Of a DNA stretch of 64,000 nucleotides, positions 1-44,644 are shown one piece after another. Numbering within the stretch: the first letter of the stretch is position 1; each line of letters starts with the position of its first letter. The notes under the pieces were generated by a model, which had not been told where the DNA came from, made no database searches, and saw nothing but the letters and a program-made list of their open reading frames with translations. The DNA comes from Pecten maximus (lineage: Eukaryota): NCBI RefSeq assembly GCF_902652985.1, contig NC_047032.1:5580001-5644000 (forward strand), written 5' to 3'. A program made the translations under genes and the position numbers.

Positions 1-335
1 TTGAGAGGGACAATGTGGGTTCAACCTCGACAAACCTTTCAAAACTAAGTTCAGTTCATATTGTCTAATGTCATACTTTAAGTTTAGCAACATGTGAAGA
101 GTTTTGACTCCCGCTATATAGTTGCGAATAGAATCGACACTGATGAAAGTCCGACTTAAAAACTGAGCGTAAAGGCATATAATCTCCGTGCTTACCGGCA
201 ACGGCTGTTTCCGGAACGCTTCGCAAAACAGAAAATAAGCTTTCCATTGTGTACGGAAATTTCTATAAGTACCCTCAGCGAAGGCTGCTCTAGCGGACAC
301 CTTGAGATCTTTCCTAAGCTGTGACCAGGCAGTGT
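1..335 (-). CDS. Tyrosine recombinase, N-terminal core-binding region (partial; not in the ORF track)
   Basis: Manual translation DTAWSQLRKDLKVSARAAFAEGTYRNFRTQWKAYFLFCEAFRKQPLPVSTEIICLYAQFLSRTFISVDSIRNYIAGVKTLHMLL...LVLKGLSRLNP resembles DIRS/Ngaro YR N-termini. The frame is open from 477 to 1 with no ATG before the domain. Acceptor-like TTTCATCCTTCCAG ends at 336. Confidence 0.85.
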
Positions 336-520
336 CTGGAAGGATGAAACAGGAGTCATAAAGCCTGATATCGCTAAAATTTACCTTATAAACTAGGAAA
401 AGATACACTGCTATGTATATAGTGTCAACATATGTACAAAACTGAAGAAAAAGGTAAACCACCAAGAGAGGGATACATCACTATATATATACCCTGTCTC
501 AACTACTATGTATAGATAAT

Positions 521-2383
521 CTACCAAGAGTGGGAGAAGGAGAACATGCTAGAGGGTACTACCTCCTCTACCAGGTCAACTTCCTTGGTCAAACGGATGA
601 ACTCCTGCTGGTGTATAACATCTAAATGCCACCTGGATAAATGGTCTGGTAGTCGATTTTGAATTCCAGAGATGTGTTGCGCCCTGATCTCAAATTCAAA
701 ACTAGCAGCAAAGTAACATATCTCTCTGAGACAGCTCTGCATAAATTGAATTCTGGACCTACCTGAGTTGAGGACCGATACTGTGGCTTCGTTGTCACAT
801 AGTATGACAATTCTCTTACCTTTAAAGGCACTGGCCCAGAGTTTTATACTCACCATAACTGTTAACAACTCTAGGATGTTTATACATGGGGACAGTTGAA
901 GGATGGTGTCTGGGAACTCTGTATGAAAGTATCTACCCATGAAGTAGCCTCCCCCGCCTGTGAGACAAGCATCTGAGGCAAACTCAGTGTCTGGAGTGGA
1001 CCATTGTTCCAGAAACATAATGGACACACCGTTATACTGTGCCAGAAAAATGTGCCACCACAATATGTCCTTTCTCACCTCTTCTGAAATACTCCAGGAA
1101 CGATGACTGTCCTGACCAATCGACCGGAGCCAGTTCAATATACGGCTAACAAAAAGTCGACCTGGACGAACACAGGCAGCGACAAACTGTAATTTTCCCA
1201 GCAGGGATTGAATCTCCTTTAAGGAAGCCCTTTCCTTTTTCAACCATTCGCAGGTTAAGATTCCTATTTCCTGCAACCTAAAATCAGGGACCTCTAAGAC
1301 CATCCTGACTGTGTCAAACAAGACACCCAAAAAAACCATACGAGTGGCAGGAGGCTCTGCCTTCTTCTCCGATTCGATAAAGCCACAATCAGAGAGAAGG
1401 GAACCAAGTCTCCAGAAAGCCAAATCTGCCATGTCCGGGCACTCAGCCCCTGCAAAATCATCTAGATAATTGAGGACCAGAAAACCGTCCTGCAGCATTA
1501 AGAACGAAATCAGACTTGTGACTCTTTGACAAATGTACGCTGCCGAACGCAAACCCATAGATAAGACCCGATCAAAATACATCTTACCTTCCCAAGAGAA
1601 ACCTAAAAAACGAATATCTCCCGGGTCGATGGGAATTTGTCTGTAAGCCTTCCTAAGGTCTCTCTTGAAAAGACAACAACCCCTCCCTTTCTCCTTGATA
1701 ATCTCTACCAGGTCATCTACCCTGGGGTATGACAATGAGATGGGGTCCCCTAAATATGAAGTCTTGGGGATACAACTATTTACTGACTTAGAGTCCGGAA
1801 AGCTCAAATCCAAAATTATGCGTCTTTCCTCAGAATCCCTCTTTGGAACTGAGTTTAAGGGGGAAATCACCATGGGTAAGGAAAACGGATTTTCCTCAAA
1901 TGGACCTAACACCGACTCATTTGCCAACTCAATACGTAAATACTCACTTATTTCCTGAGGAAAGTCTGTAGCTCCTTTGTGATTTCTGTACTTGATAGAA
2001 GAACTTACCTCTGAAGTAGCCTCCTGGCGATGAATTAAGAGGTGGTTGTCTAACCCTATGGGAAAACCAAACTCTAAAAATTTTAAAACCTCTAGATCCG
2101 AGTACAACTCTAACCTGTCTTTCATATATCTGATGTTAAAATTTGACTTAACAGGGGTCCTTTGGGTATTAAAATTAAAGCAGGATTGAACCTGTAAATT
2201 TCTAACAGTTTCTTCGGGTACCTCAGAAACTATATCATCTACAGCGTCTATAGGTATATGTCTATAATCAATATCTTGGCCACCCGATACAAACAAATTA
2301 CCTCCAAATTCAAAAGGCACATACTCGGGTTCTATAATTGAGGTGTCTGGATCTATCTCAATACCTACAGACGGGACGGTTAG
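521..2383 (-). CDS. Reverse transcriptase + RNase H (pol); frame open up to the gag stop codon
   Basis: RT motifs SPLNSVPK, RIILDLS, KRDLRKAYRQI, LSMGLRSA, YLDDF, FLGV. RNase H motifs ASDAC, INILEL, CDN, NRLPDHLSR. The 21 codons at 2383-2321, upstream of the GTG used in the ORF track, are also open. Confidence 0.95.
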   Translation of the reverse strand, partial: LTVPSVGIEIDPDTSIIEPEYVPFEFGGNLFVSGGQDIDYRHIPIDAVDDIVSEVPEETVRNLQVQSCFNFNTQRTPVKSNFNIRYMKDRLELYSDLEVLKFLEFGFPIGLDNHLLIHRQEATSEVSSSIKYRNHKGATDFPQEISEYLRIELANESVLGPFEENPFSLPMVISPLNSVPKRDSEERRIILDLSFPDSKSVNSCIPKTSYLGDPISLSYPRVDDLVEIIKEKGRGCCLFKRDLRKAYRQIPIDPGDIRFLGFSWEGKMYFDRVLSMGLRSAAYICQRVTSLISFLMLQDGFLVLNYLDDFAGAECPDMADLAFWRLGSLLSDCGFIESEKKAEPPATRMVFLGVLFDTVRMVLEVPDFRLQEIGILTCEWLKKERASLKEIQSLLGKLQFVAACVRPGRLFVSRILNWLRSIGQDSHRSWSISEEVRKDILWWHIFLAQYNGVSIMFLEQWSTPDTEFASDACLTGGGGYFMGRYFHTEFPDTILQLSPCINILELLTVMVSIKLWASAFKGKRIVILCDNEATVSVLNSGRSRIQFMQSCLREICYFAASFEFEIRAQHISGIQNRLPDHLSRWHLDVIHQQEFIRLTKEVDLVEEVVPSSMFSFSHSW

Positions 2384-3592
2384 TCACAAGGCATTTGGAC
2401 ATGTCTCTGCTGATTCAGGATGTTGTCTTTTTACCCCATCTTTTTTCCAACATGTGGCACAGATATGTAGCAAATGCCTTTTGACACCCCGTATGTCGCC
2501 ATCATGATCCCCTCTTTCGCTACAACGATTTTTCTGAAACATTACACAAAACCAAACTCTCCCAGAGTCCGACTGAATCGGACCACTATTTCTGGGTTTC
2601 TCATTTTTTTGCATCAACACATGTTTCGCCAAAATTGGGACTTCAATACTTGAGGGATCATCTGACCATGATCTCTCACCCAACTCTATCTTGCGAAGCC
2701 ATGCCGCATACCATGCAAGCAAGGCTTTCCATTCATAAATATTGCTATAATACACAATTTTCTGAAGGAATACTGTCCTTCCTTCCTTCTCTGAAGCAGA
2801 GCTCGTCTTGGAAATTATCTCAAGCTCTCCCGCCACAAATAATTTAAAGGTGAGATCTTGAAACTGGGGATTCTTACTTACATATTCGTATTGAAGAAAG
2901 TGGTGGGGATAAGCTTGAGGGAATTTCACGACGTCTCCAGCTTTAGCTTTCAAACCAGATCTGAGTTTTTCACCCTTACGTGCTCGTTTAAAGCTATTGT
3001 AGGAAGCCGATGAGGCGACTGATAGAGTGTCGGAGTCAGTATCACTACCGGAAAATTCCGGCAACACCCTGGACATCTTCTTGCTCGATCTGCTGACCAG
3101 CTGGTCCATTTTTCTCAGTTTAATCAAGTCTATGTCGTTAGGCATACCTGAACCAAGGCCAGTCGCTGCTGATTGAGGCTGATCCTGCTGGATGTCATCT
3201 AACTGCCTCTGAAGATCATCCCGCTTCTTCCTTCTGTCCTTTAATGCACTGTTCAATCTGGCCGACTCCAGTTTATTCTCTAACAGCGCGATCTCCCGGT
3301 CTGCCTCCTCAAGGCGCTTGTCCACATCACTAACCAAAGGAGACTCGATGCAAACGTTCTCTAGACTGCGATAAGCCCGGGGCGTGACAGATTTACCCCC
3401 TTCAGCCATTCCTGCACACGAAGCGAAAAATAGGTCCTCTTGATTTGCAATGTTTATAGACAGTTCTTGAGGGTTCGTTTCAGATATATCGGACACACTA
3501 CTGTTCCAATTCCCTTCGTGTAAGGATCGATAATCAATTCGGGATTTGGTTCTACGATTTCTCTGCATGACCCAATCAAGTTCATTCACCAT
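2384..3592 (-). CDS. Gag-like ORF1 of the retrotransposon (402 aa)
   Basis: Lies upstream of pol. Has a coiled-coil-like segment and a C-terminal Cys/His cluster (CVMFQKNRC...H...HICATC...H...C) typical of DIRS/Ngaro ORF1. Confidence 0.85.
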   Translation of the reverse strand: MVNELDWVMQRNRRTKSRIDYRSLHEGNWNSSVSDISETNPQELSINIANQEDLFFASCAGMAEGGKSVTPRAYRSLENVCIESPLVSDVDKRLEEADREIALLENKLESARLNSALKDRRKKRDDLQRQLDDIQQDQPQSAATGLGSGMPNDIDLIKLRKMDQLVSRSSKKMSRVLPEFSGSDTDSDTLSVASSASYNSFKRARKGEKLRSGLKAKAGDVVKFPQAYPHHFLQYEYVSKNPQFQDLTFKLFVAGELEIISKTSSASEKEGRTVFLQKIVYYSNIYEWKALLAWYAAWLRKIELGERSWSDDPSSIEVPILAKHVLMQKNEKPRNSGPIQSDSGRVWFCVMFQKNRCSERGDHDGDIRGVKRHLLHICATCWKKDGVKRQHPESAETCPNAL

Positions 3593-4070
3593 TCACCGGC
3601 CATATTAACAAGTGCGTAAATCGATGTTCCCAACACAAATCGGATCGTTGGACTCGTAGCTCGGAGTTCCCAACACAATGGGAAATAAATCGAGAGTTCG
3701 TAATTATACAGCTTAATCAGGTTTCGTGTCGAAGAATTGATTCTCCTGATCTTCTGTTACTCGAATATGCTCGTGATTGATACCATCGTAATGAAAGTTC
3801 GGTCGTATGTGCCCGACTTAGGCTCCGAACTTCCGACTTGACGTGACAAAAAACAAAGTTGACACGCAAGCCAAAGTATCTCGAATGAATAAAACTTCTG
3901 TGATTCAAACCTAAACCGGGACCTAGGGGACCCTGGGTAAATCGGGGATTGGACGGAGGCCGTGAGTACCAGCTTACTTCACTGACCAATCATTGGACCC
4001 ACAGGGACACACCCCTCACAGGCCCAGGCAAACGGGAAAACAATTAGCCATTTTACATTAAAATTTTACA

Positions 4071-4230
4071 ACACTGACATCAGTCAGGGATCCGGACAGG
4101 ACCCTCAAACACTGACATCAGTCAGGGATCCGGACAGAACCCTCAAACATTGACATCAGTAAGGGATCCGGACAGGGGACTCAAACACTGATATCAGTCA
4201 GGGTCCGGACAAGAGACTCAAACACTGACA
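4071..4230. repeat. 38-bp tandem repeat x~4 at the presumed 5' end of the retrotransposon
   Basis: Unit ACACTGACATCAGTCAGGGATCCGGACAGGACCCTCAA, copies starting at 4071, 4109, 4147 and 4185. Confidence 0.9.
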
Positions 4231-4479
4231 CCAAAAAGCTGCGGACATCATATCATGCTCAATCACATCAGATTTGGGGCCATGAGTACTGATATATTTC
4301 GGTCAAGGACTTACAAGTTGATTTGATCACATTTGAACAGAGATGTATATGTAAATATTAAGTATATAAATATATGATTAAATCTTAGCAAATCTGATAT
4401 AACATAAACCCCCAAAATGCACAAATTGCCTTAATAATCACATAATCAACATCTTTGCAGAATTCCTCTTTCATAACAA

Positions 4480-23952: not shown

Positions 23953-26900
23953 CTGTAAAGAGAATTTTAGTGTGGAGTAAAAATCGACAAGGCAACTAAG
24001 ATGTGGTTCTGTAAATGCAAAATGTAAACTTGTAAACTTAATTCGCTTAACAAGTTTTATCATTATTCAACTTATATTGATCAATCTGGGCCTGGATTGA
24101 AGGATCTGAGTGGTCTTATTGTCAGAGGAAACCAGAGTACCTGAGTAAAACCCATGTGGCCAATACCTGTTCATGTCCGATCACGATATCAAACCCCAGC
24201 CGCCTATGTGGCCGGGCAGGTGACCAATACCTGTTCATGTCGGATCACGTTATCAAACCCCAGCCGCCTATGTGGCCGGGCAGGTGACCAATACCTGTTC
24301 ATGTCGGATCAGGATATCAAAGCCCAGCAGCCTATGTGGACATGCCTGTGTGATACCACTGTACCACTAACATGTAAGGGGAAATGGTTCAGGGAGCACA
24401 TCTTACTTGGTCACAGTGGGTAAATATTATTGATATATATTGACACAGTTTCGTGAGGATCACATCAGCTCAGCAGTTCCTGAGATAAGCTAGTTTCATT
24501 GCATTTGGATGGACAGGACGGGCATAGGTACCTCTCCCCCTCCACTCAATTTAATAATATGATTTGTTCATGTACAATGATCTATATGATCCTTTTGCAA
24601 CTAACTGTATAACTATGTCATTGAAGTTTGAGACAAAATATGAGATAATTCAGAATGGATAACAACTCACCTCCCATAACAAATGGTTTTGCCAGAAATT
24701 TCATTTCACTTTCGCCCTCATGTGACAGATTGCTGCTCGACAGATTATCCTCCTCTTCGGGCTCCTGGGGGTCAATGGGATCCACTTCAATATCCTTTGG
24801 TTTTGGTGTTGCCTCCTGCTCTGGGGCAAGTGTAGAACCAACTGTAAGCAAAGAATCTTCATGAAAATTCACGTAAGTGAAAAGCAGATTTTTTAAAGGA
24901 TAGTTTGTTTTTTATTACCTTTAAAAACACATTATTTGCTTTCCTTTCATGATTCGTTGATGCAGACAGAAAGTCAACAAATAAAAGCTTCAAACTAATT
25001 TTCAAGTTTTTTTTTTTTTTTTTTTTCAACATATGTAATTTAAATTATATTTTAATAAGTTCCTTTAAATTGTTACAGATCATTTATACCTGTTTTTTCA
25101 TTATTATTTACAGAATTTAGTTTTGAGTACATAATGTTTGGAGAATTTTCTTCAAATGATTATATCAGAGAACTTTTATTCATCTTTTTTTAGTTTCAAT
25201 GTTTTATCAAATCTACACTCTGGGTGGAGTAAATATGTTTCCTTAGTAATTTTTCAAAAGTTCCACATTTTGTTGGATCAAGGGAAGTAACTCCAACTGT
25301 TTACACTGTAGCGTAACCAGTAATCAAGAAAGACAACTGTAGCAGGTTAATGTATTCTGATGTCCAATGTGTAGGTATGGAAAAGCTCCATAGCATAAGA
25401 AAAAGGATAAAAATTGATAGAAACAGGACAGCTAAAATGATGCATGCAAATGTTAGTAGAGAAAGAGAAAATGTAAATACAACATGCCAAAAATATACAA
25501 AATGCTAGGCCAAAGAAATCAATGTGGTTCGGCTAATGAATCACCGTGTTACCAGGTATTCTGCAACTCAAGTCGCCAAACATTCGCGTACTTGAGTTTA
25601 CAAGAATTACCCTGTATTCTTCTGCTGGAGTATGAAGAATACTGGTAGTCAACGAATACAGCATTACTGAGTTGACTCATTCAGGGCCTCTTTTAGAGGA
25701 ATACCAAACTTTTAATTTCCTTGACCTTCCTCAGTGACTTACTGTGGTTAAATTAGAATACTCTAACATTTCTATAGGTGTTAGTTCACACAGCTACCAT
25801 CCAGTCCACTCATGCTGTGTTTTGGCAGTTACTCAATAAATTTCCAGGCCATTAATCAATGAATATTCAAATCATTAATTTATAATTTATTAATATTCAG
25901 AATATTCCTTGATGACTATTTAGACCAATTGTCAATGAATATTCAAATCATTAACTTATTAATATTCAGAATATTCCTTGATGACTATTTAGACCAATAA
26001 CCAATGAATATTCAAATCATTAATTTATTAATATTCAGAATATTCCTTGATGACTATTTAGACCAATTATCAATGAATATTCAAACCATTAATACAAATT
26101 TCAAATCAATTTTTTGATCAGAGTTACTTGAATTTTCCTGAAAATATTGATGAGCGCAATAAATATTTGAGTCAGCCAAAGGCTGATGAGATAAACGGAG
26201 GGAATGATACATGGATCTGTTACTATTGCAGTACTGGTAGTTATACAACTAACAGAGCTTGATTTTCTGTATGTGTTACTTAGTTGTATGTTTATCATAG
26301 AACACTCATTCAAATTGTAAAACACCTATTATCAAAACAAAGCAAGTCCAACAGAACGTAATAATTCACTCAAGTGATAATTGATATTATTCACATCCTC
26401 ACCATAGGAATCAACCAATCCCCTACCCAAAAATTCTCTAACACAGCAGTACATCCCTCCTTGGCCCTGCTAAACAGCTCACTCCTCCAAAACAGCTGTT
26501 AAATCTCATCCCTACCCAACCCCTCCAAAACAGCAATCTCTAACCCCTGCCTAGCCCCTCCTACAACGATCTTTAACCCCTGCCTAGCCCCTCCAAAACA
26601 GCAATCTCTAAACCATACCTAGCCCCTCCTAAACAACAATCTATAACCCCTGCCTAGCCCCTCCTACAACAATCTATAACCCTTGCCTAGCCCCTCCTAC
26701 AACAATCTCTAACCCCTGCCTAGCCCCTGCCTAGCCCCTGCCTAGCCCCTCCTACAACAATCTCTAACCCCTGCCTAGCCCCTCCTACAACAATCTCTAT
26801 CCCCTGCCTAGCCCCTCCTACAACAATCTATAACCCCTGCCTAGCCCCTCCTAAACAACAATCTATAACCCCTGCCTAGCCCCTCCTACAACAATCTCTA

Positions 26901-29900
26901 TCCCCTGCCTAGCCCCTCCTACAACAATCTATAACCCGTGCCTAGCCCCTCCTACAACAATCTCTAACCCCTGCCTAGCCCCTCCTAAACAACAATCTAT
27001 AACCCCTGCCTAGCCCCTCCTAAACAACAATCTATAACCCCTGCCTAGTCCCTCCTACAACAATCTATAACCCCTGCCTAGTCCCTCCTACAACAATCTA
27101 TAACCCTTGCCTAGCCCCTCCTACAACAATCTATAACCCCTGCCTAGCCCCTCCTACAACAATCTATAACCCCTGCCTAGTCCCTCCTAAACAACAATCT
27201 ATAACCCCTGCCTAGTCCCTCCTACAACAATCTATAACCCCTGCCTAGCCCCTCCTAAACAACAATCTATAACCCCTGCCTAGTCCCTCCTACAACAATC
27301 TATAACCCCTGCCTAGCCCCTCCTACAACAATCTATAACCCCTGCCTAGCCCCTCCTAAACAACAATCTCTAACCCCTGCCTAGCCCCTCCTACAACAAT
27401 CTATAACCCCTGCCTAGTCCCTCCTACAACAATCTATAACCCCTGCCTAGTCCCTCCTACAACAATCTCTAACCCCTGCCTAGCCCCTCCTAAACAACAA
27501 TCTATAACCCCTGCCTAGTCCCTCCTACAACAATCTCTATCCCCTGCCTAGCCCCTCCTACAACAATCTATAACCCCTGCCTAGCCCCTCCTACAACAAT
27601 CTCTATCCCCTGCCTAGCCCCTCCTACAACAATCTCTAACCCCTGCCTAGCCCCTCCTACAACAATCTCTAACCCCTGCCTAGCCCCTCCTACAACAATC
27701 TATAACCCCTGCCTAGCCCCTCCTACAACAATCTATAACCCCTGCCTAGCCCCTCCTACAACAATCTATAACCCCTGCCTAGCCCCTCCTACAACAATCT
27801 CTAACCCCTGCCTAGCCCCTCCTAAACAACAATCTATAACCCCTGCCTAGCCCCTCCTACAACAATCTCTATCCCCTGCCTAGCCCCTCCTACAACAATC
27901 TATAACCCCTGCCTAGCCCCTCCTACAACAATCTCTATCCCCTGCCTAGCCCCTCCTACAACAATCTCTAACCCCTGCCTAGCCCCTCCTACAACAATCT
28001 ATTACCCCTGCCTAGTCCCTCCTACAACAATCTATAACCCCTGCCTAGCCCCTCCTACAACAATCTATTACCCCTGCCTAGTCCCTCCTACAACAATCTA
28101 TAACCCCTGCCTAGTCCCTCCTACAACAATCTCTATCCCCTGCCTAGTCCCTCCTACAACAATCTATAACCCCTGCCTAGCCCCTCCTACAACAATCTCT
28201 AACCCCTGCCTAGTCCCTCCTACACCAATCTCTAACCCCTGCCTAGCCCCTCCTAAACAACAATCTATAACCCCTGCCTAGCCCCTCCTACAACAATCTA
28301 TAACCCCTGCCTAGCCCCTCCTACAACAATCTATTACCCCTGCCTAGCCCCTCCTACAACAATCTCTAACCCCTGCCTAGCCCCTCCAAAACCCTTCCAA
28401 AACTGTCATTTCTTACCCTCCTCCCATCGTTCAATCAAGTCATATTCCTTATTCCTCCAGAGTAGTTGACAATCCACCCCCCCCCCCCCCCCCTACCCCC
28501 TCGGGAACAGCAGGCACACCCCCAACCCTCCCTACCCCCTCGGGAACAGCAGGCAGTCACCATCCCTGGCCAGCTGTTGTTGTACTTACATTCTGTATCA
28601 ATATAGTCAATGATAAGTGGTGGATCTGTATCGACTACGTACTGAAAAACAAAACAAACCACAGTTGTTAACAAATAGATCAGAGGTCAACAACATCAAT
28701 CAGTGATATTCATAAACTTATTATATCCTTTTTATCCTAGGCTCAAATACAATAACTACCAACGGTTAAAACAAGCTTCATTAAAGGTGTCTTATTTTCT
28801 CTTTTTACTTTTAATTCTGATGCAGCATTCTACTTCCTTACATATCTCTATCTAAAAACTAACAAAACTATTACTGACTTTGTCATTAATCTTCATTTGT
28901 ATTGATTTTTCCATCTAAATATTTTCTATCTTTTTCAGGGGGATCCATTTGGAGATTTTTAAGCCTAAGTTCGAATTCAAATTTTTGAAATCTTTTTGAC
29001 ATCTTGAAGTCTTTCTGAACCCTATTACCACTGATAAAGGAATTTCCAATTCTGCTGACAGTTAATTTGGTATTTAAGTAAGTCTTGCAGGTGTATGTTT
29101 AAGTCACCAAAATTATCACTGAATGCTACAGATGTACAGCCCATGACCCTATATGGTATTTAATACTTATTGTCAATGGACAGTTTTATCATCCTCTCAA
29201 GTGTTGAAAACAAGTACAAAAGTGAAACAATCAGCTAATAAGCTGAGGTTTGTTGTACTTGTGAGACTAAATTCTAGTAGCTGCATGCTACAGATATATA
29301 TATATATATATATATATCACTCACTGGAGCAGACAGATCTCTCTCCATAAGGCCTAGTCATTTCATTTTAATTCACAGCCTCCATTTTATTAAATAAATG
29401 ATGCATCACATATAAAAACACATAGAAATTCCTTTTCAAACTGTTTTTTTTTATGTACACCTGCAGTCTCACTTCAATATGTCAAAGTTATGCACTAACA
29501 TTTTAAGAGCTTGTTGGATATGAACAGTTTGTGAGAGCTTGTTGGATATGAACAATTTGTGAGAGCTTGTTGGATATGTACAGGCTGTGAGAGCTTGTTG
29601 GCACATGTATGGGTTGTAAGAGCTTGTTGGATATGTACAGTTTGTGAGAGCTTGTTGGATATGTAGTATGTGAGAGCTTGTTAGATATGTACAGTTTGTG
29701 AGAGCTTGTTGAATATGTACAGCTTGTGAAAGTTTGTTGGATATGTACAGTTTGTGAGAGCTTGTTGCACTTATACTAGTTATGAGAGCTTGTTGGATAT
29801 GTAAAGTTTGTGAGAGCTTGTTGGCATATGTATGAGTTATGAGAGCTTGTTTGATATGTACAGCTTGTGAGAGCTTGTTGGATATGTAGTTTGTGAGAGC

Positions 29901-37170: not shown

Positions 37171-38490
37171 CAAGGTCAAACACTGGTTTACTGACAAGGT
37201 CAAACACTGGTTTACTGACAAGGTCAAACACTGGTTTACTGACAAGGTCAAACACTGGTTTACAGGCAAGGGCAAACACTGGTTTACTGACAAGGGCAAA
37301 CACTGGTTTACTGACAAGGTCAAACACTGGTTTACTGACAAGGTCAAACACTGGTTTACTGACAAGGTCAAACACTGCAGCTTGGTTTACTGACAAGGTC
37401 AAACACTGGTTTACTGACAAGGTCAAACACTGGTTTACAGGCAAGGGCAAACACTGGTTTAAATTTACTGGCAAGGTCAAACACTGGTTTACTGACAAGG
37501 TCAAACACTGGTTTACTGACAAGGTCAAACACTGGTTTACTGACAAGGTCAAACACTGGTTTAAATTTACTGGCAAGGTCAAACACTGGTTTACTGACAA
37601 GGTCAAACACTGGTTTAAATTTACTGGCAAGGTCAAACACTGGTTTACTGACAAGGTCAAACACTGGTTTACAGGCAAGGTCAAACACTGGTTTACTGAC
37701 AAGGTCAAACACTGGTTTACTGACAAGGGCAAACACTGGTTTACTGACATGGTCAAACACTGGTTTACTGACAAGGTCAAACACTGGTTTACTGACAAGG
37801 TCAAACACTGGTTTACTGACAAGGTCAAACACTGGTTTACTGACATGGTCAAACACTGGTTTACTGACAAGGTCAAACACTGGTTTACTGACAAGGTCAA
37901 ACACTGGTTTACAGCAATTCAACAACTGGTTTACTGACAAGGCAAACATTTTAGGCAGTTAAACATGGTTTACTGAAAAAGGCAAACATGTTTACTGACA
38001 GGTCAACACTTTACTGACTGTCAAAACACTTTTACTGAACAAGTGCAACCCCTGTTTAATTATTAACTTCAAGTGCAACATCTATTACTGAATCAAACTT
38101 CAAGTGACAGTCAACTTTACTACTTCAAGGACGACAGTCATACCCGTTTACTAACGTCAACGTACAGCATCAACATGTTTAAATCTTACTGCAAGTGCAA
38201 CATCTGTTACTTGACTAAGTTCAAGTGACAATCAACACTGTTTACTGACAAGTCAACACTGGTTTACTACATGGTCAACTTTATCTACACTGTCAAAGTT
38301 TACAATTACTGGCAGTCAACACTGTTATTCTACAAGTCAAACACGGTTTACTGACAATCCAACACTGTTTACTGAACCAAGGATCAACTGGTTTAAATTT
38401 ATGAAGGTCAAACATGGTTACTGAAAGGTCAACACTGCTGCTTGGTCTTTAATGACAACTCAAACACTATTACGTGACAATCAACACTGT
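37171..38490. repeat. 24-bp minisatellite (clean to ~37945, then degenerate)
   Basis: Unit CAAGGTCAAACACTGGTTTACTGA. Confidence 0.95.
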
Positions 38491-38491
38491 T

Positions 38492-38893
38492 CTTTATCTA
38501 ACTCAGTGACCATCTCAACTTTATCTAACTTCAAGTGACCATCACATTACTTTAAACTAACTTCAATGGCCATCTCATTACTTTATCTAACTTCAAGTGA
38601 CCATCTCATTACTTTATCTAACTTCAAGTGACCATCTCATTACTTTATCTAACTTCAAGTGACCATCTCATTACTTTATCTAACTTCAAGTGACCATCTC
38701 ATTACTTTATCTAACTTCAAGTGACCATCTCATTACTTTATCTAACTTCAAGTGACTTGACTATCCCATTACTTTATCTAACTTCAAGTGACCATCTCAT
38801 TACTTTATCTAACTTCAAGTGACAATCACATTACTTTATCTAACTTCAAGTGACCATCTCACTACTTTATCTAACTTCAAGTGACCATCTCAT
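38492..38893. repeat. 31-bp minisatellite
   Basis: Unit ACTTTATCTAACTTCAAGTGACCATCTCATT. Confidence 0.93.
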
Positions 38894-38899
38894 ACTTAT

Positions 38900-41800
38900 C
38901 AATCTCTTACTTTCTAATCCTCCTTACACCGCTCATCTTACCTCACCATACATCACCCCTCCACTATCTACGACCCTACACTCTACCCTACACCTCCACA
39001 TCTCTCGTACTCCACTACCTCACCATCCAACTACCTTCGTGACCTCACTCAATTCAGACATCCAACTTCTACCGACATCCACTATTACCAACTCCACTTC
39101 CCGACATCACCTTTATCAGAACCACCCTATCCAAACTACATCTCTCATGAATCAATTAACGCGTACTTCACTTCTACACCCCGACATCTCTCCAACTCAA
39201 TCTACCCGGACCCTCACTCTCTACCTGACACCTACATCTCTACCACACCTACTTCTACTGAACCTACATCTTACCGACCTCCACTTCTACCAACCTCCAC
39301 TTACTAACTCAACTACCTACCTCCACACTTCTACCGACACTCCACTCTCTCTACCCACAACCTCCACACTCTCTACCGACACTCCACTTTCTACTTCGTA
39401 CACCTCCACACTTCTACCCTGACACACTCCACATCTCTACCCTGACACCTCCAACTTCTAACCCGACACCTCCCACTTCTACTTAACACCATCCAATACT
39501 CTCTAACACCTCACACTATCTCTACCAGACACTCACACTTCATCACCCAGACACCTCACACTCTCTACCCGACCTCCAATATCTAACCTGACCTCCAACT
39601 TCTCACCGACACCTCATCTACCTCGGACACCTCCACACTCTCTAACCACGACACCTCCACTTCTACCCAGGACCTCCACTTCTACCAGCACTCCACTCTA
39701 CCCGACACCTCCACACTCTCTACCGACACCTCCACACTTCTACCCTGACACCTCCACATTTCTACCAGGACACCTCACTCTCTACCCGACACCCTACCTA
39801 TCTACCCACACCTCCACACTCTCTAACCTGACACCTCCACACTCTCACCCTGACACCTCCACATTCTACCCGACATCCACACTTCTACCCTGACACCTCC
39901 ACACTCTCTATCCCGACACCTCCACACTCTCTACCCCGACACCTCCACACTCTCTACCCCGACACCTCCACACTCTCTACCCCGACACCTCCACACTCTC
40001 TACCCGACACCTCCACACTCTCTACCCCGGACACCTCCACACTCTCTACCCCGACACCTCCACACTCTCTACCCCGACACCTCCACACTATCTACCCCGA
40101 CACCTCCACACTCTCTACCCCTGACACCTCCACACTCTCTACCCAGACACCTCCACCACCTCTCTACCCCGACACCTCCACACTCTTCTACCCCTGACAC
40201 CTCCACACTCTCTACCCGGACACCTCCACACTCTCTACCCAGACAACCTCCACACTATCTACCCCGGACACCTCCCACACTCTCTACCCGACACCTCCAC
40301 ACTCTCTACCCCGGACACCTCCACACTCTCTACCCCGACACCTCACACTCTCTATACCCTGACACCTCCACACTCTCTACCCGGACACCCTCCACACTCT
40401 CTACCCCGGACACCTCCACCTCTCTACCAACACTCCACTCTCTACCCGACACCTCCACACTCTCTACCTACTACTTCTACCGAACCCCACTCTCTCTACC
40501 CTCCAACTCTACCAGACACCTCCACACTTCTACCCAGACACCTCCACACATACCTCACCTTCTACCGACACCTCCACACTACTCTACCCCACTACACCTC
40601 CACACTATCTACCCTGACACCTCCACACTCTCTACCCGACACCTCCACACTCTCTACCCAGACACCTCCACACTCTCTACCCAGACACCTCCACACTCTC
40701 TACCCCGACACCTCCACACTCTCTACCCCGACACCTCCACACTCTCTACCCCGACACCTCCACACTCTCTACCCGACACCTCCACACTATCTACCCCCCT
40801 CACACCTCTCTACACACTCTCTACCAACCCTCTACACTCTCTAGACCACGACACCTCCACATTCTACCCGACACCTCCACACTCTCTACCCGACACCTCC
40901 ACACTCTCTACCGCACCTCACACTCTACCCCTGACACCTCCACACTATCTACCCCGACACCTCCACTCTCTCTATCCTGACACCTCCACACTCTCTACCC
41001 CGACACCTCCACACTATCTACCCAGACACCTCCACACTCTCTACCCAGACACCTCTACACTCTCTACCCCGACACCTCCACACTCTCTACCCAGACACCT
41101 CCACACTATCTACCCTGACACCTCCACACTCTCTACCCAGACACCTCCACACTATCTACCCTGACACCTCCACACTCTCTACCCGGACACCTCCACATTC
41201 TCTACCCAGACACCTCCACACTCTCTACCCGGACACCTCCACACTCTCTACCCCGGACACCTCCACACTCTCTACCCTGACACCTCCACACTCTCTACCC
41301 AGACACCTCCACACTATCTACCCTGACACCTCCACACTCTCTACCCGGACACCTCCACATTCTCTACCCAGACACCTCCACACTCTCTACCCCGACACCT
41401 CCACACTATCTACCCAGACACCTCCACACTCTCTACCCAGACACCTCCACACTCTACCCAACTCAACTCTACCCGACACCTCTCCACTCCATCTCTACCT
41501 CCGACACCTCCACACTCTCTACCGACACCCCACACTCTCACCCACGACACCCTCCACACTCTCCCTACCCCAGACACCTCCACACTCTCTACCCCCAGAC
41601 ACCTCCACACTATCTACCCACCCCTACCCACCTCCACACTCTCTACCCCGACACCTCCACACTATCTCTACCCGACACCTCCACACTCTCTACCCGACAC
41701 CCTCCACACTTCACTCCCACGACACCTCCACACTCTCTACCCCGACACCTCCACACTCTCTACCCGACACTCACACTCCCAACCTACACTCTACCCCGAC

Positions 41801-43560
41801 ACCCTCCACCACTCTCTACCCACACCTCCACACTATCTACCCCGACCCCACTCCTACCCCCTCACATCTACCACCTACACCTCCGACACCTCCCACCCCA
41901 CTTCTCTACCCAGACACCTCCACACCATCTACCCCGACACCTCCACACTCATCTACCCAGACACCCTCCACACTCTCTACCCTGACACCTCCACATCTCT
42001 ACCCAGACACCCTCCACACTCTCTACCCAGACACCTCCACACTATCTACCCCGACACCTCCACACTCTCTACCCGGACACCTCCACACTCTCTACCCAGA
42101 CACCTCCACACTCTCTACCCAGACACTCCACACTCTCTACCCAGACACCTCCACACTCTCTACCCAGACACCTCCACACTCTCTACCAGACACCTCCACA
42201 CTATCTACCCAGACACCTCCACACTCTCTACCCTGACACCTCCACATTCTCTACCCAGACACCTCCACACTCTCTATCCCCTGACACCTCCACACTTTCT
42301 ACATTGACACTTCCACACCTCTCTACCCCGACACCTCCACACTCTCTACCCGGACACCTCCACACTCTCTACCCCGACACCTCCACACTATCTACCCCGA
42401 CACCTCCACACTCTCTACCCCGACACCTCCACACTATCTACCCCGACACCTCCACACTCTCTACCCGGACACCTCCACACTATCTACCCCGACACCTCCA
42501 CACTATCTACCCCGACACCTCCACACTCTCTACCCAGACACCTCCACACTATCTACCCTGACACCTCCACACTCTCTACCCAGACACCTCCACACTATCT
42601 ACCCAGACACCTCCACACTATCTACCCCGACACCTACACACTCTCTACCCCGACACCTCCACACTCTCTACCCGGACACCTCCATGCTTTTTATCCTGAC
42701 ACCTCCACACTCTCTACCAGACACCTCCACACTCTCTACCCAGACACCTCCACACTCTCTACCCTGACACCTCCACACTCTCTACCCAGACACCTCCACA
42801 CTCTCTACCCAGACACCTCCACACTATCTACCCCGACACCTCCACACTCTCTACCCGGACACCTCCACACTCTCTACCCAGACACCTCCACACTCTCTAC
42901 CCAGACACCTCCACACTCTCTACCCAGACACCTCCACACTCTCTACCCAGACACCTCCACACTATCTACCCAGACACCTCCACACTCTCTACCCTGACAC
43001 CTCCACATTCTCTACCCAGACACCTCCACACTCTCTATCCTGACACCTCCACACTTTCTACATTGACACTTCCACACTCTCTACCCCGACACCTCCACAC
43101 TCTCTACCCGGACACCTCCACACTCTCTACCCCGACACCTCCACACTATCTACCCCGACACCTCCACACTCTCTACCCCGACACCTCCACACTATCTACC
43201 CCGACACCTCCACACTCTCTACCCAGACACCTCCACACTCTCTACCCAGACACCTCCACACTCTCTACCCCGACACCTCCACATTCTCTACTCGGACACC
43301 TCCACACTATCTACCCCGACACCTCCACATTCTCTACTCGGACACCTCCACATTCTCTACCCCGACACCTCCACATTCTCTACTCGGACACCTCCACACT
43401 CTCTACCCGGACGCCTCCACATTCTCTACTCGGACACCTCCACACTCTCTACCCGGACACCTCCACACTCTCTACCCGGACACCTCCACACTCTCTACCC
43501 CGACACCTCCACACTATCTACCCCGACACCTCCACATTCTCTACTCGGACACCTCCACAC
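38900..43560. repeat. 23-bp C-rich minisatellite (noisy left part)
   Basis: Unit GACACCTCCACACTCTCTACCC(C/A/T/G). Confidence 0.95.
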
Positions 43561-44644
43561 CTTCTTGTATCCGAAGTCACCAGTAAGTATTTAACAAATT
43601 ATATAACGAGTCTGACACAAGCAAAGGCAATAGTCCTACCAGAAAACTTCGCGTATTACGCCATGCTGATAAAACAGGGATTTTGAACACCTCCCCACAA
43701 TTCTGATGTAAACGAAGTGAATTCTACCAAAATCATTACCTCATGTTCATATGTCAACAGGTTTGTTTGTTGTTATATCATTAATTCAACTTCTAAATTA
43801 TGCAATGTATTTTTGTCAAGTTTCATTAAGCTACTGAAACTTTATCTGTACAGATAAGAACATTAGTATAATGACAGACTTCGTGTACAGTCCTACAACA
43901 CAAATCAACATCACTATATATAACAGTTAGTTTGGTATCACTATTTACATAAATATTTTTTGAATTTCATGTAAATGATGGTCTTTTATTGTTTCTGACA
44001 AATCTTGCTACAAGAAAATTGATTTAAGTAACTGGCTGATTGCATGACAGGTGTCTATCAGTATAAAACCAGCTTCCTCCTCAAAACACACATCAATATA
44101 TAGCTGTGTTAATCAAGACAGAGCCTCTTTTTCAACCTAATACCAGCACAAGAGATCAATGGTTTTTTTTTTACATTTACACATTCTTGAATTACATGAT
44201 GTGGATAGATTATCTTGCCATGGGTTTCTATATAAAATACTTTATTTTTCTGTTTTGTTTTGCAACTCCTTTCACACCTAAATACATATTCTAAATGAAA
44301 GCTATCAAGTAACATTCGTTGGAGAGGCTGGGATACATCCTTGCTATCTTGCCCCAGGAGATGGGACATCAGAATAAAAGAACTCCACCCAGACAGGCCT
44401 GCATGCTATCTGGTTACACACTTTGCATATGGTTAATGTAAGTAAAACATCACAAAACGAAGAAAGCAAATTCTATTTTTTTACCAAAATTTGTCAAATT
44501 TTTAAGTTTGACAGTACCAGGTATATTAGAAAATGAGATTTTGGAAGAATAGTTACACCACAAGATTTTTGTGTAGCGTTGCTATGAAAATGACAGCTAG
44601 CAGCTAATAAGATTTGAGGGATAATTATATAAGGTCATCATGAT

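Follow-up and report, generated by a model that had tools for sequence, protein, structure and literature searches.

How does a retrotransposon make its reverse transcriptase (RT) when a stop codon stands between gag and pol in the same reading frame? The question is raised by an element on the minus strand near the start of a 64,000-nucleotide stretch of Pecten maximus DNA (NCBI RefSeq assembly GCF_902652985.1, contig NC_047032.1, positions 5,580,001 to 5,644,000), which we call the window. The element is an intact, recently multiplied Ngaro-type retrotransposon (order DIRS), and a single UGA, followed by CUA, separates its gag and pol. Comparison with related families leads us to conclude, with a probability of roughly 85%, that Type II (UGA-C) read-through of this codon yields a Gag-Pol fusion of up to 1023 amino acids. 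Coordinates are window positions, and published work is cited from passages of the papers named.

A single in-frame UGA between gag and pol

The features at the junction are as follows.

2387..3592, minus strand: gag-like open reading frame (ORF), 402 codons, with a C-terminal Cys/His motif
2381..2389, minus strand: TTG-TGA-CTA junction, the gag stop in a Type II read-through context
2384..2386, minus strand: the one TGA that parts gag from pol in their shared frame, a predicted read-through site; TGA in 40 of 40 in-frame families
521..2383, minus strand: pol ORF, 620 codons, with a variable linker, RT and an RNase H-like end
2123..2125, minus strand: earliest ATG in the pol frame (codon 87)

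Across the junction, the minus-strand sequence is GCC TTG TGA CTA ACC GTC CCG TCT GTA GGT ATT, with the TGA at 2386-2384. The gag frame is open for 402 codons (3592-2387) and ends TTG-TGA, and pol follows directly after the stop in the phase of gag (2383-524, 620 codons), starting CTA ACC GTC. These letters and open frames confirm the original prediction, made from the sequence of this stretch, that gag and pol are in frame with one UGA-CUA between them. That prediction had also placed the first Met of pol about 85 codons downstream; the earliest in-frame ATG is codon 87, at 2125-2123. A TP motif (codons 76-77) precedes it, as do two Asn columns retained in about 70% of in-frame families. A fusion through the stop would have at most 402+1+620 = 1023 amino acids, in line with the roughly 1020 proposed earlier. 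The position of the gag start is uncertain, with Met 1, 9 or 62 as candidates and an out-of-frame ATG at 3603. The five-codon out-of-frame ORF that begins there (3603-3586) overlaps the first gag ATG, and Met9 or a later Met may be the real start.

Type II read-through sites consist of UGA-CUA or UGA-CGG and occur in alphavirus, tobravirus, furovirus and coltivirus genes (PMC3159437). The window element has UGA-CUA.

An intact and recently multiplied Ngaro-type element

Two further features define the class of the element.

3850..4071, minus strand: A1, the 5' terminal repeat (222 bp), with an identical copy, A2, close to the 3' end
1..335, minus strand: 5' part of the tyrosine-recombinase (YR) exon, which runs on past the window start; in frame with gag after splicing

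The 3' part of the element falls left of the window start, in a neighbouring stretch, L101 (window position = L101 position minus 5000). Taken together, the two stretches give the layout A1-ORFs-B1-A2-B2, in which A is 222 bp and B is 435 bp, and both the A pair and the B pair are 100% identical. The Ngaro layout is described as A1-[ORFs]-B1A2B2 (PMC8547959). PF00078 matches pol residues 179-311 (E=1e-07, above the cut-off), and RT and RT/RNase H structures match pol at E 1e-8 to 3e-3, aligned over the RT part. The RNase H match itself is weak (PF17917, only E=0.11). Pol ends about 35 residues past a D-x-LSR motif, and Pfam gave no match to a methyltransferase domain after RNase H at E<=0.1, nor at E<=1 on the last 192 amino acids. 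The recombinase frame matches PF00589 at E=0.0011, below the curated cut-off, and HSFRRG and a downstream Tyr are visible in its translation. The gag ORF matches no Pfam family above its cut-off; it is matched by gag C-terminal profiles built here, with the window gag itself among their seeds.

The element thus has the split direct repeats, the RT and RNase H in ORF2 and the tyrosine recombinase in ORF3 of Ngaro elements, with no methyltransferase found. A missing methyltransferase separates Ngaro elements from DIRS1-like and PAT-like ones. DIRS1-like elements also have inverted terminal repeats with a complementary region inside the element; the window element is not DIRS1-like, its terminal repeats being direct and a methyltransferase match being absent. 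It shares its repeats, its ORF order (gag-like, RT/RNase H, YR) and the lack of a detected methyltransferase with the Ngaro superfamily (PMC8547959, PMC3266345), and it differs in that gag and pol abut at a conserved UGA-C. The nearest named proteins come from scallops and mussels, and our RT trees held unnamed loci only, without named reference Ngaro, PAT or DIRS1 sequences. The earlier remark that DIRS-type elements usually have overlapping ORFs does not suit a Ngaro-type element, in which ORFs are usually without overlap (PMC3266345); overlapping ORFs have nonetheless been found in Xenopus (PMC9210276).

A 401-nt junction query gave 15 genomic matches, including the window itself, and 13 of them (L001-L013) carry TGA CTA ACC. 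The in-frame TGACTA is therefore not a private nonsense mutation of one copy. L015, which is 71% identical over the match, has TGA CTG. Full-length matches are mostly 99.6-99.9% identical across 3.3 kb; six, located on small contigs, could represent alternative haplotypes. Flanking sequence on the 5' side is distinct in all five loci where it is visible, and the family has therefore spread recently, with the stop already in place. The insertion site of this copy is a 38-bp tandem repeat (window 4072-4240, L101:2950-3175), which is no fixed target because four other copies have unrelated flanks.

UGA-C is kept at in-frame junctions of related families

We surveyed this genome and marine contigs for relatives. 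The loci were 59 of 150 RT matches and the window's element; 30 loci and 20 regions from a second set of 150 matches, some overlapping; and 80 of 290 confirmed metagenome stretches with 4 genome contigs. Together, 194 loci formed 120 families at 85% RT identity, and 81 of the 120 could be classed by the frame of the ORF that bears the gag C-terminal profile match.

All 40 families with gag and pol in frame end gag with TGA, and in 39 of them a C follows. This arrangement is more than chance. TGA occurs in 4 and TGA-C in 2 of the 30 families with pol in the +1 frame, and in 5 and 1, respectively, of the 11 with pol in the -1 frame, so that the out-of-frame families together have 9/41 and 3/41. 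The same comparison in this genome alone gives 13/13 in-frame against 2/36 out-of-frame families. The pol stop serves as a kin-matched control: in the 32 in-frame families with complete pol it is TGA in 6 and TGA-C in 1. Stops therefore turn over freely in these families, and the gag stop does not.

The TGA-C context is kept across RT domains down to about one-third identity, as expected if the context is conserved in related families, and several broken loci also have a gag that ends at TGA-CT. Beyond the stop, pol is open for 500-730 codons in most in-frame families. The codon after TGA is CUA in 15 of the 40 and CGG in 2, with CAA the second commonest and UGG in one family. Immediately ahead of the stop, the codon is CAA in 14 of the 40 and the last base is A in 25. 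The motif had been likened to UGA-CUA and to the mammalian UGA-CUAG. What is conserved is UGA-C, with UGA-CUA in the 15 families mentioned; UGA-CUAG is not the conserved motif.

A scan of viral contigs gave five pattern matches, none of them a relative. In four loci (L242-L245), contigs assigned to bacterial genome bins carry Ngaro-type elements whose junctions are TGA-C; this DNA is probably eukaryotic.

Little RNA structure around the stop

One feature had been proposed as a structural signal.

2345..2372, minus strand: GTCTG/CAGAC complementarity, not supported as structure

The 80 and 120 nt after the window stop fold no better than shuffled sequences (z +0.2 each), and the extended 3' RNA structure of Type II sites was not found within either length. 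The original prediction had pointed to a pairing of GTCTG (2372-2368) with CAGAC (2349-2345). The two are complementary, but they are not paired with each other in any of the three downstream folds, and the complementarity is lost in two diverged copies. A 22-nt inverted repeat, 82% complementary, could pair 2492-2471 with 2397-2376, its 3' arm covering the stop codon; it is disrupted without compensation in L014, and we rejected it as a signal. Folding upstream of the stop was rejected as well: in-frame families (mean z -0.48) show no more of it than +1 families do (mean z -0.6). Farther downstream, 130 to 250 nt after the stop, window 2253-2134 folds better than shuffles (z -4.1), a property not shared by the families on average.

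A spliced contig joins gag to the recombinase

Two splice sites are of interest.

3142..3150, minus strand: splice donor CAG/GTATGC, after gag codon 148 and one base; cut between 3148 and 3147
336..356, minus strand: pyrimidine tract and AG acceptor before the recombinase frame

We compared eight sequencing runs, one of which (X15) shows the depths of another (X1) and was counted as the same data. One contig of X1, which is RNA-like, skips window 3147-336 with GT..AG ends; its short side is 27 letters. This joint, the sole splice joint seen, removes the stop and the whole of pol and brings the recombinase into the frame of gag codons 1-148, giving a product of 475 amino acids. Contigs of X1, X3, X7, X16 and X18 cross the TGA without a listed change. 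Because the splice drops the stop together with pol, and contigs bridge the TGA, Pol is likely made from unspliced RNA. Contigs of X3 and X4, from another study, break at donor 3148 toward other sequence, and the joining of this donor to outside sequence in X3, X4 and X15 suggests splicing into host flanks. According to a review quoted in PMC13003380, translation probably gets to YR through a frameshift from pol. In contrast, YR of the window element does not overlap pol, and the spliced contig joins it to gag.

A 5208-nt contig of X16 (L101:3176-9069) connects the element's 3' end with its 5' end, which could be a circle junction or an effect of assembling repeats.

How Pol is probably made, and the alternatives

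We postulate that most ribosomes on unspliced RNA would stop at the UGA and release Gag. The C after the UGA, often with A or CAA before it, would weaken termination and allow a near-cognate tRNA to insert a residue. The inserted residue would be Trp, Arg or Cys. Read-through on a small share of passes would give a low Pol:Gag ratio, and the fusion could tether RT to Gag for packaging. Local 3' structure is apparently not required. Spliced RNA would supply the recombinase in the form of a Gag(1-148)-YR fusion.

Several observations weigh against read-through. The choice of loci was biased to long open pol frames, and 39 of the 120 families are unclassified (short contigs, no gag match or broken copies). 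A Fisher test of TGA-C in in-frame versus out-of-frame families gives p=2e-18 with families treated as independent, a value that overstates independence because there are only 4 tree-independent contrasts (sign test p=0.25). Type II sites generally, if not universally, have extended 3' RNA structure (PMC3159437), and we found none over the 40 in-frame families (mean z +0.13 and +0.10). In the same paper, a construct that lacked the stem-loop sequence reached 2.0% read-through in cells. The in-frame gag-UGA-pol junction of Candida Tca2 showed no read-through in a yeast reporter (PMC2194720). The decayed copy L014 has TTA CTA, a sense codon at the stop site, and another decayed relative, L111, has TGG there. 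None of the element-bearing sequencing runs is recorded as RNA, so that calling them RNA is guesswork, and rare splice forms are lost from contigs. Lastly, an AUG lies ahead of the first conserved pol motif (TP) in 20 of 39 families, sometimes 3-10 codons past the stop, and reinitiation is therefore possible in those families.

Pol could accordingly have its own start at a downstream AUG, reached by reinitiation or internal entry or served by an internal promoter, with the UGA an ordinary stop. Met87 of the window element sits just before the strongly conserved part of pol (L91, D96), and Tca2 has a weak promoter at its junction (PMC2194720). However, the first in-frame AUG ranges from codon 3 to codon 363, and 9 of 39 families have it past the SPLN motif, inside the RT core. 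A separate start also fails to account for the contrast between the gag-pol joint, which is in frame and at TGA-C in 39 of 40 families, and the pol stops, which vary freely. We regard separate production of Pol as improbable. We give slightly less credence to the idea that TGAC is a splice branch point, so that splicing between the gag donor and an AG that closely follows the stop would remove this codon. The branch-point consensus is CTRAY, which TGACTAAC resembles; the donor at 3148 is in use; and in the window CTAAC is followed by a pyrimidine-rich stretch and a TAG 20 nt past the A of TGA, whose AG (2366-2365) is in phase (phase 1) with that donor. Across 38 families, however, the first AG shows no phase preference (15, 12 and 11 in phases 1, 0 and 2), the pyrimidine share before it averages 0.50, with no tract, and in 25 of 40 families TGA is preceded by A, not by a pyrimidine. 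The AG at 2366-2365 is missing from L014 and L015, no joint to it appears in the eight runs (two of which seem to be one data set), and a branch point has no need to be an in-frame gag stop.

It is less likely still that the TGA is a nonsense mutation in a formerly continuous gag-pol frame, spread by the RT of another family in trans and conserved through kinship. The RT of DIRS-1 can work in trans (PMC7192593), the tree-independent contrasts are few, and single loci (L059, L090 and L224) have fused gag-pol frames. Other copies of the L059 and L090 families have the +1 layout, though, and in L224 the Cys/His motif seems to be missing its second half. The kinship explanation also has to accommodate a pol that is open for 500-730 codons beyond the stop in most families and a stop at the end of gag even in families of one-third RT identity. 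Least probable of all, and very nearly negligible, is decoding of the UGA as selenocysteine. The codon is always UGA in the in-frame families, but it occupies a variable, non-catalytic linker position, and a SECIS search gave no family matching the element at E up to 1 (two weak matches were unrelated). Read-through at UGA-C remains our preferred explanation.

Frameshift-like signals in sister families

The out-of-frame relatives have signals of a different kind. A -1 pol frame is found in 11 families (L095, L144, L145, L147, L148, L152, L154, L160, L175, L176 and L197), every one of which carries an in-phase AAAAAAC or CCCTTTA in the overlap (chance rate not computed), at fixed distances of 0, 30 or 39 nt from the gag stop. 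Of the 30 families with pol in the +1 frame, 21 show TTT-CG in the overlap, read in the frame of gag, and 27 show TTT-C. TTT-CG occurs 26 times in 2406 overlap codons of these families versus 13 times in 7628 codons upstream, and 1 and 2 times in the other frames. The +1 families of this genome (L049-L089, for example L062, L067 and L073) often have TCC, CCC or AAT before TTT CGN, and five of the +1 families without TTT-CG carry CCC TTT C.

The +1 shift site of influenza PA-X is UCC UUU CGU (PMC8310308), and -1 slippery heptamers are described in animal LTR retrotransposons (PMC5009743). The sister families resemble these systems in having TTT-CG or X XXY YYZ in phase in the overlap. The difference is that the motifs are found in relatives rather than in the window element, and frameshifting would be deduced from motifs only. 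We consider the TTT-CG sites candidate PA-X-like +1 frameshift sites and the heptamers candidate -1 sites. Because frameshift-like motifs occur in the sister families, fusion of Gag to Pol by recoding would seem to be the rule.

This genome holds all three layouts (in-frame 13, -1 8 and +1 28 families). Quick trees were used to compare them, one without 10 damaged loci and one, of 79 families, without L067 and L182. In the 79-family tree, which has no outside root, the three layouts require 6 changes, and uniting all in-frame families in a single clade is rejected (p-AU 9e-10). L057, which is in frame with TGA CTC, falls inside the +1 clade, on starred branches, which suggests a separate origin. 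Its family keeps TGA in 5 of 6 matches, and the most diverged has TGG. The +1 families in the window's clade, L167 and L212, are single loci each and may be damaged copies. On balance, we lean toward the view that Ngaro-type elements of marine animals switch among structure-free UGA-C read-through, -1 frameshifting (AAAAAAC/CCCTTTA) and PA-X-like +1 frameshifting (UUU-C(G)), with at least several switches on the tree, and that at least some splice the recombinase to gag.

Relation to known systems

Stop-codon read-through between gag and pol is already known from retroviruses and from plant and animal RNA viruses. As at viral Type II sites, the UGA here is followed by C, mostly in CUA and also in CGG, and the extension is a polymerase (PMC3159437). 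Unlike those sites, the junctions described here have no detectable extended 3' structure, CAA is the second commonest next codon, and the host is a nuclear retrotransposon. Murine leukaemia virus and Candida Tca2 likewise have one in-frame stop between gag and pol and make pol from full-length RNA (PMC3159437, PMC2194720). However, both are integrase-bearing LTR elements, and murine leukaemia virus uses UAG-G and a pseudoknot (PMC3159437).

Our literature search gave no description of gag-pol read-through in elements of the DIRS order; an earlier mention in key older papers or Repbase is possible. The passages of PMC8547959 and PMC3266345 make no statement on how pol is translated, and the term "stop codon" is absent from those of PMC3266345, PMC9210276, PMC7192593, PMC3783388 and PMC6681497. 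The passages of PMC5009743 mention neither DIRS nor Ngaro, and those of PMC12440569 and two preprints use the terms in other senses. The translation of Ngaro-type elements thus appears to be undescribed.

Read-through would offer a concrete answer to how Ngaro-type elements express their reverse transcriptase. The 40 diverged natural sites, which seemingly work without 3' structure, could be a resource on the minimal animal read-through signal, and the sister families provide many candidate PA-X-type +1 sites outside RNA viruses. If true, three-way switching would amount to a large natural panel of swappable recoding signals within one genome. There is also a practical consequence, in that gene callers annotate such pol genes from the wrong start.

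Elsewhere in the window, positions 26001-28000 and 38001-44000 have a strong C-over-G skew (-0.66 to -0.85) and are probably simple or tandem repeats.

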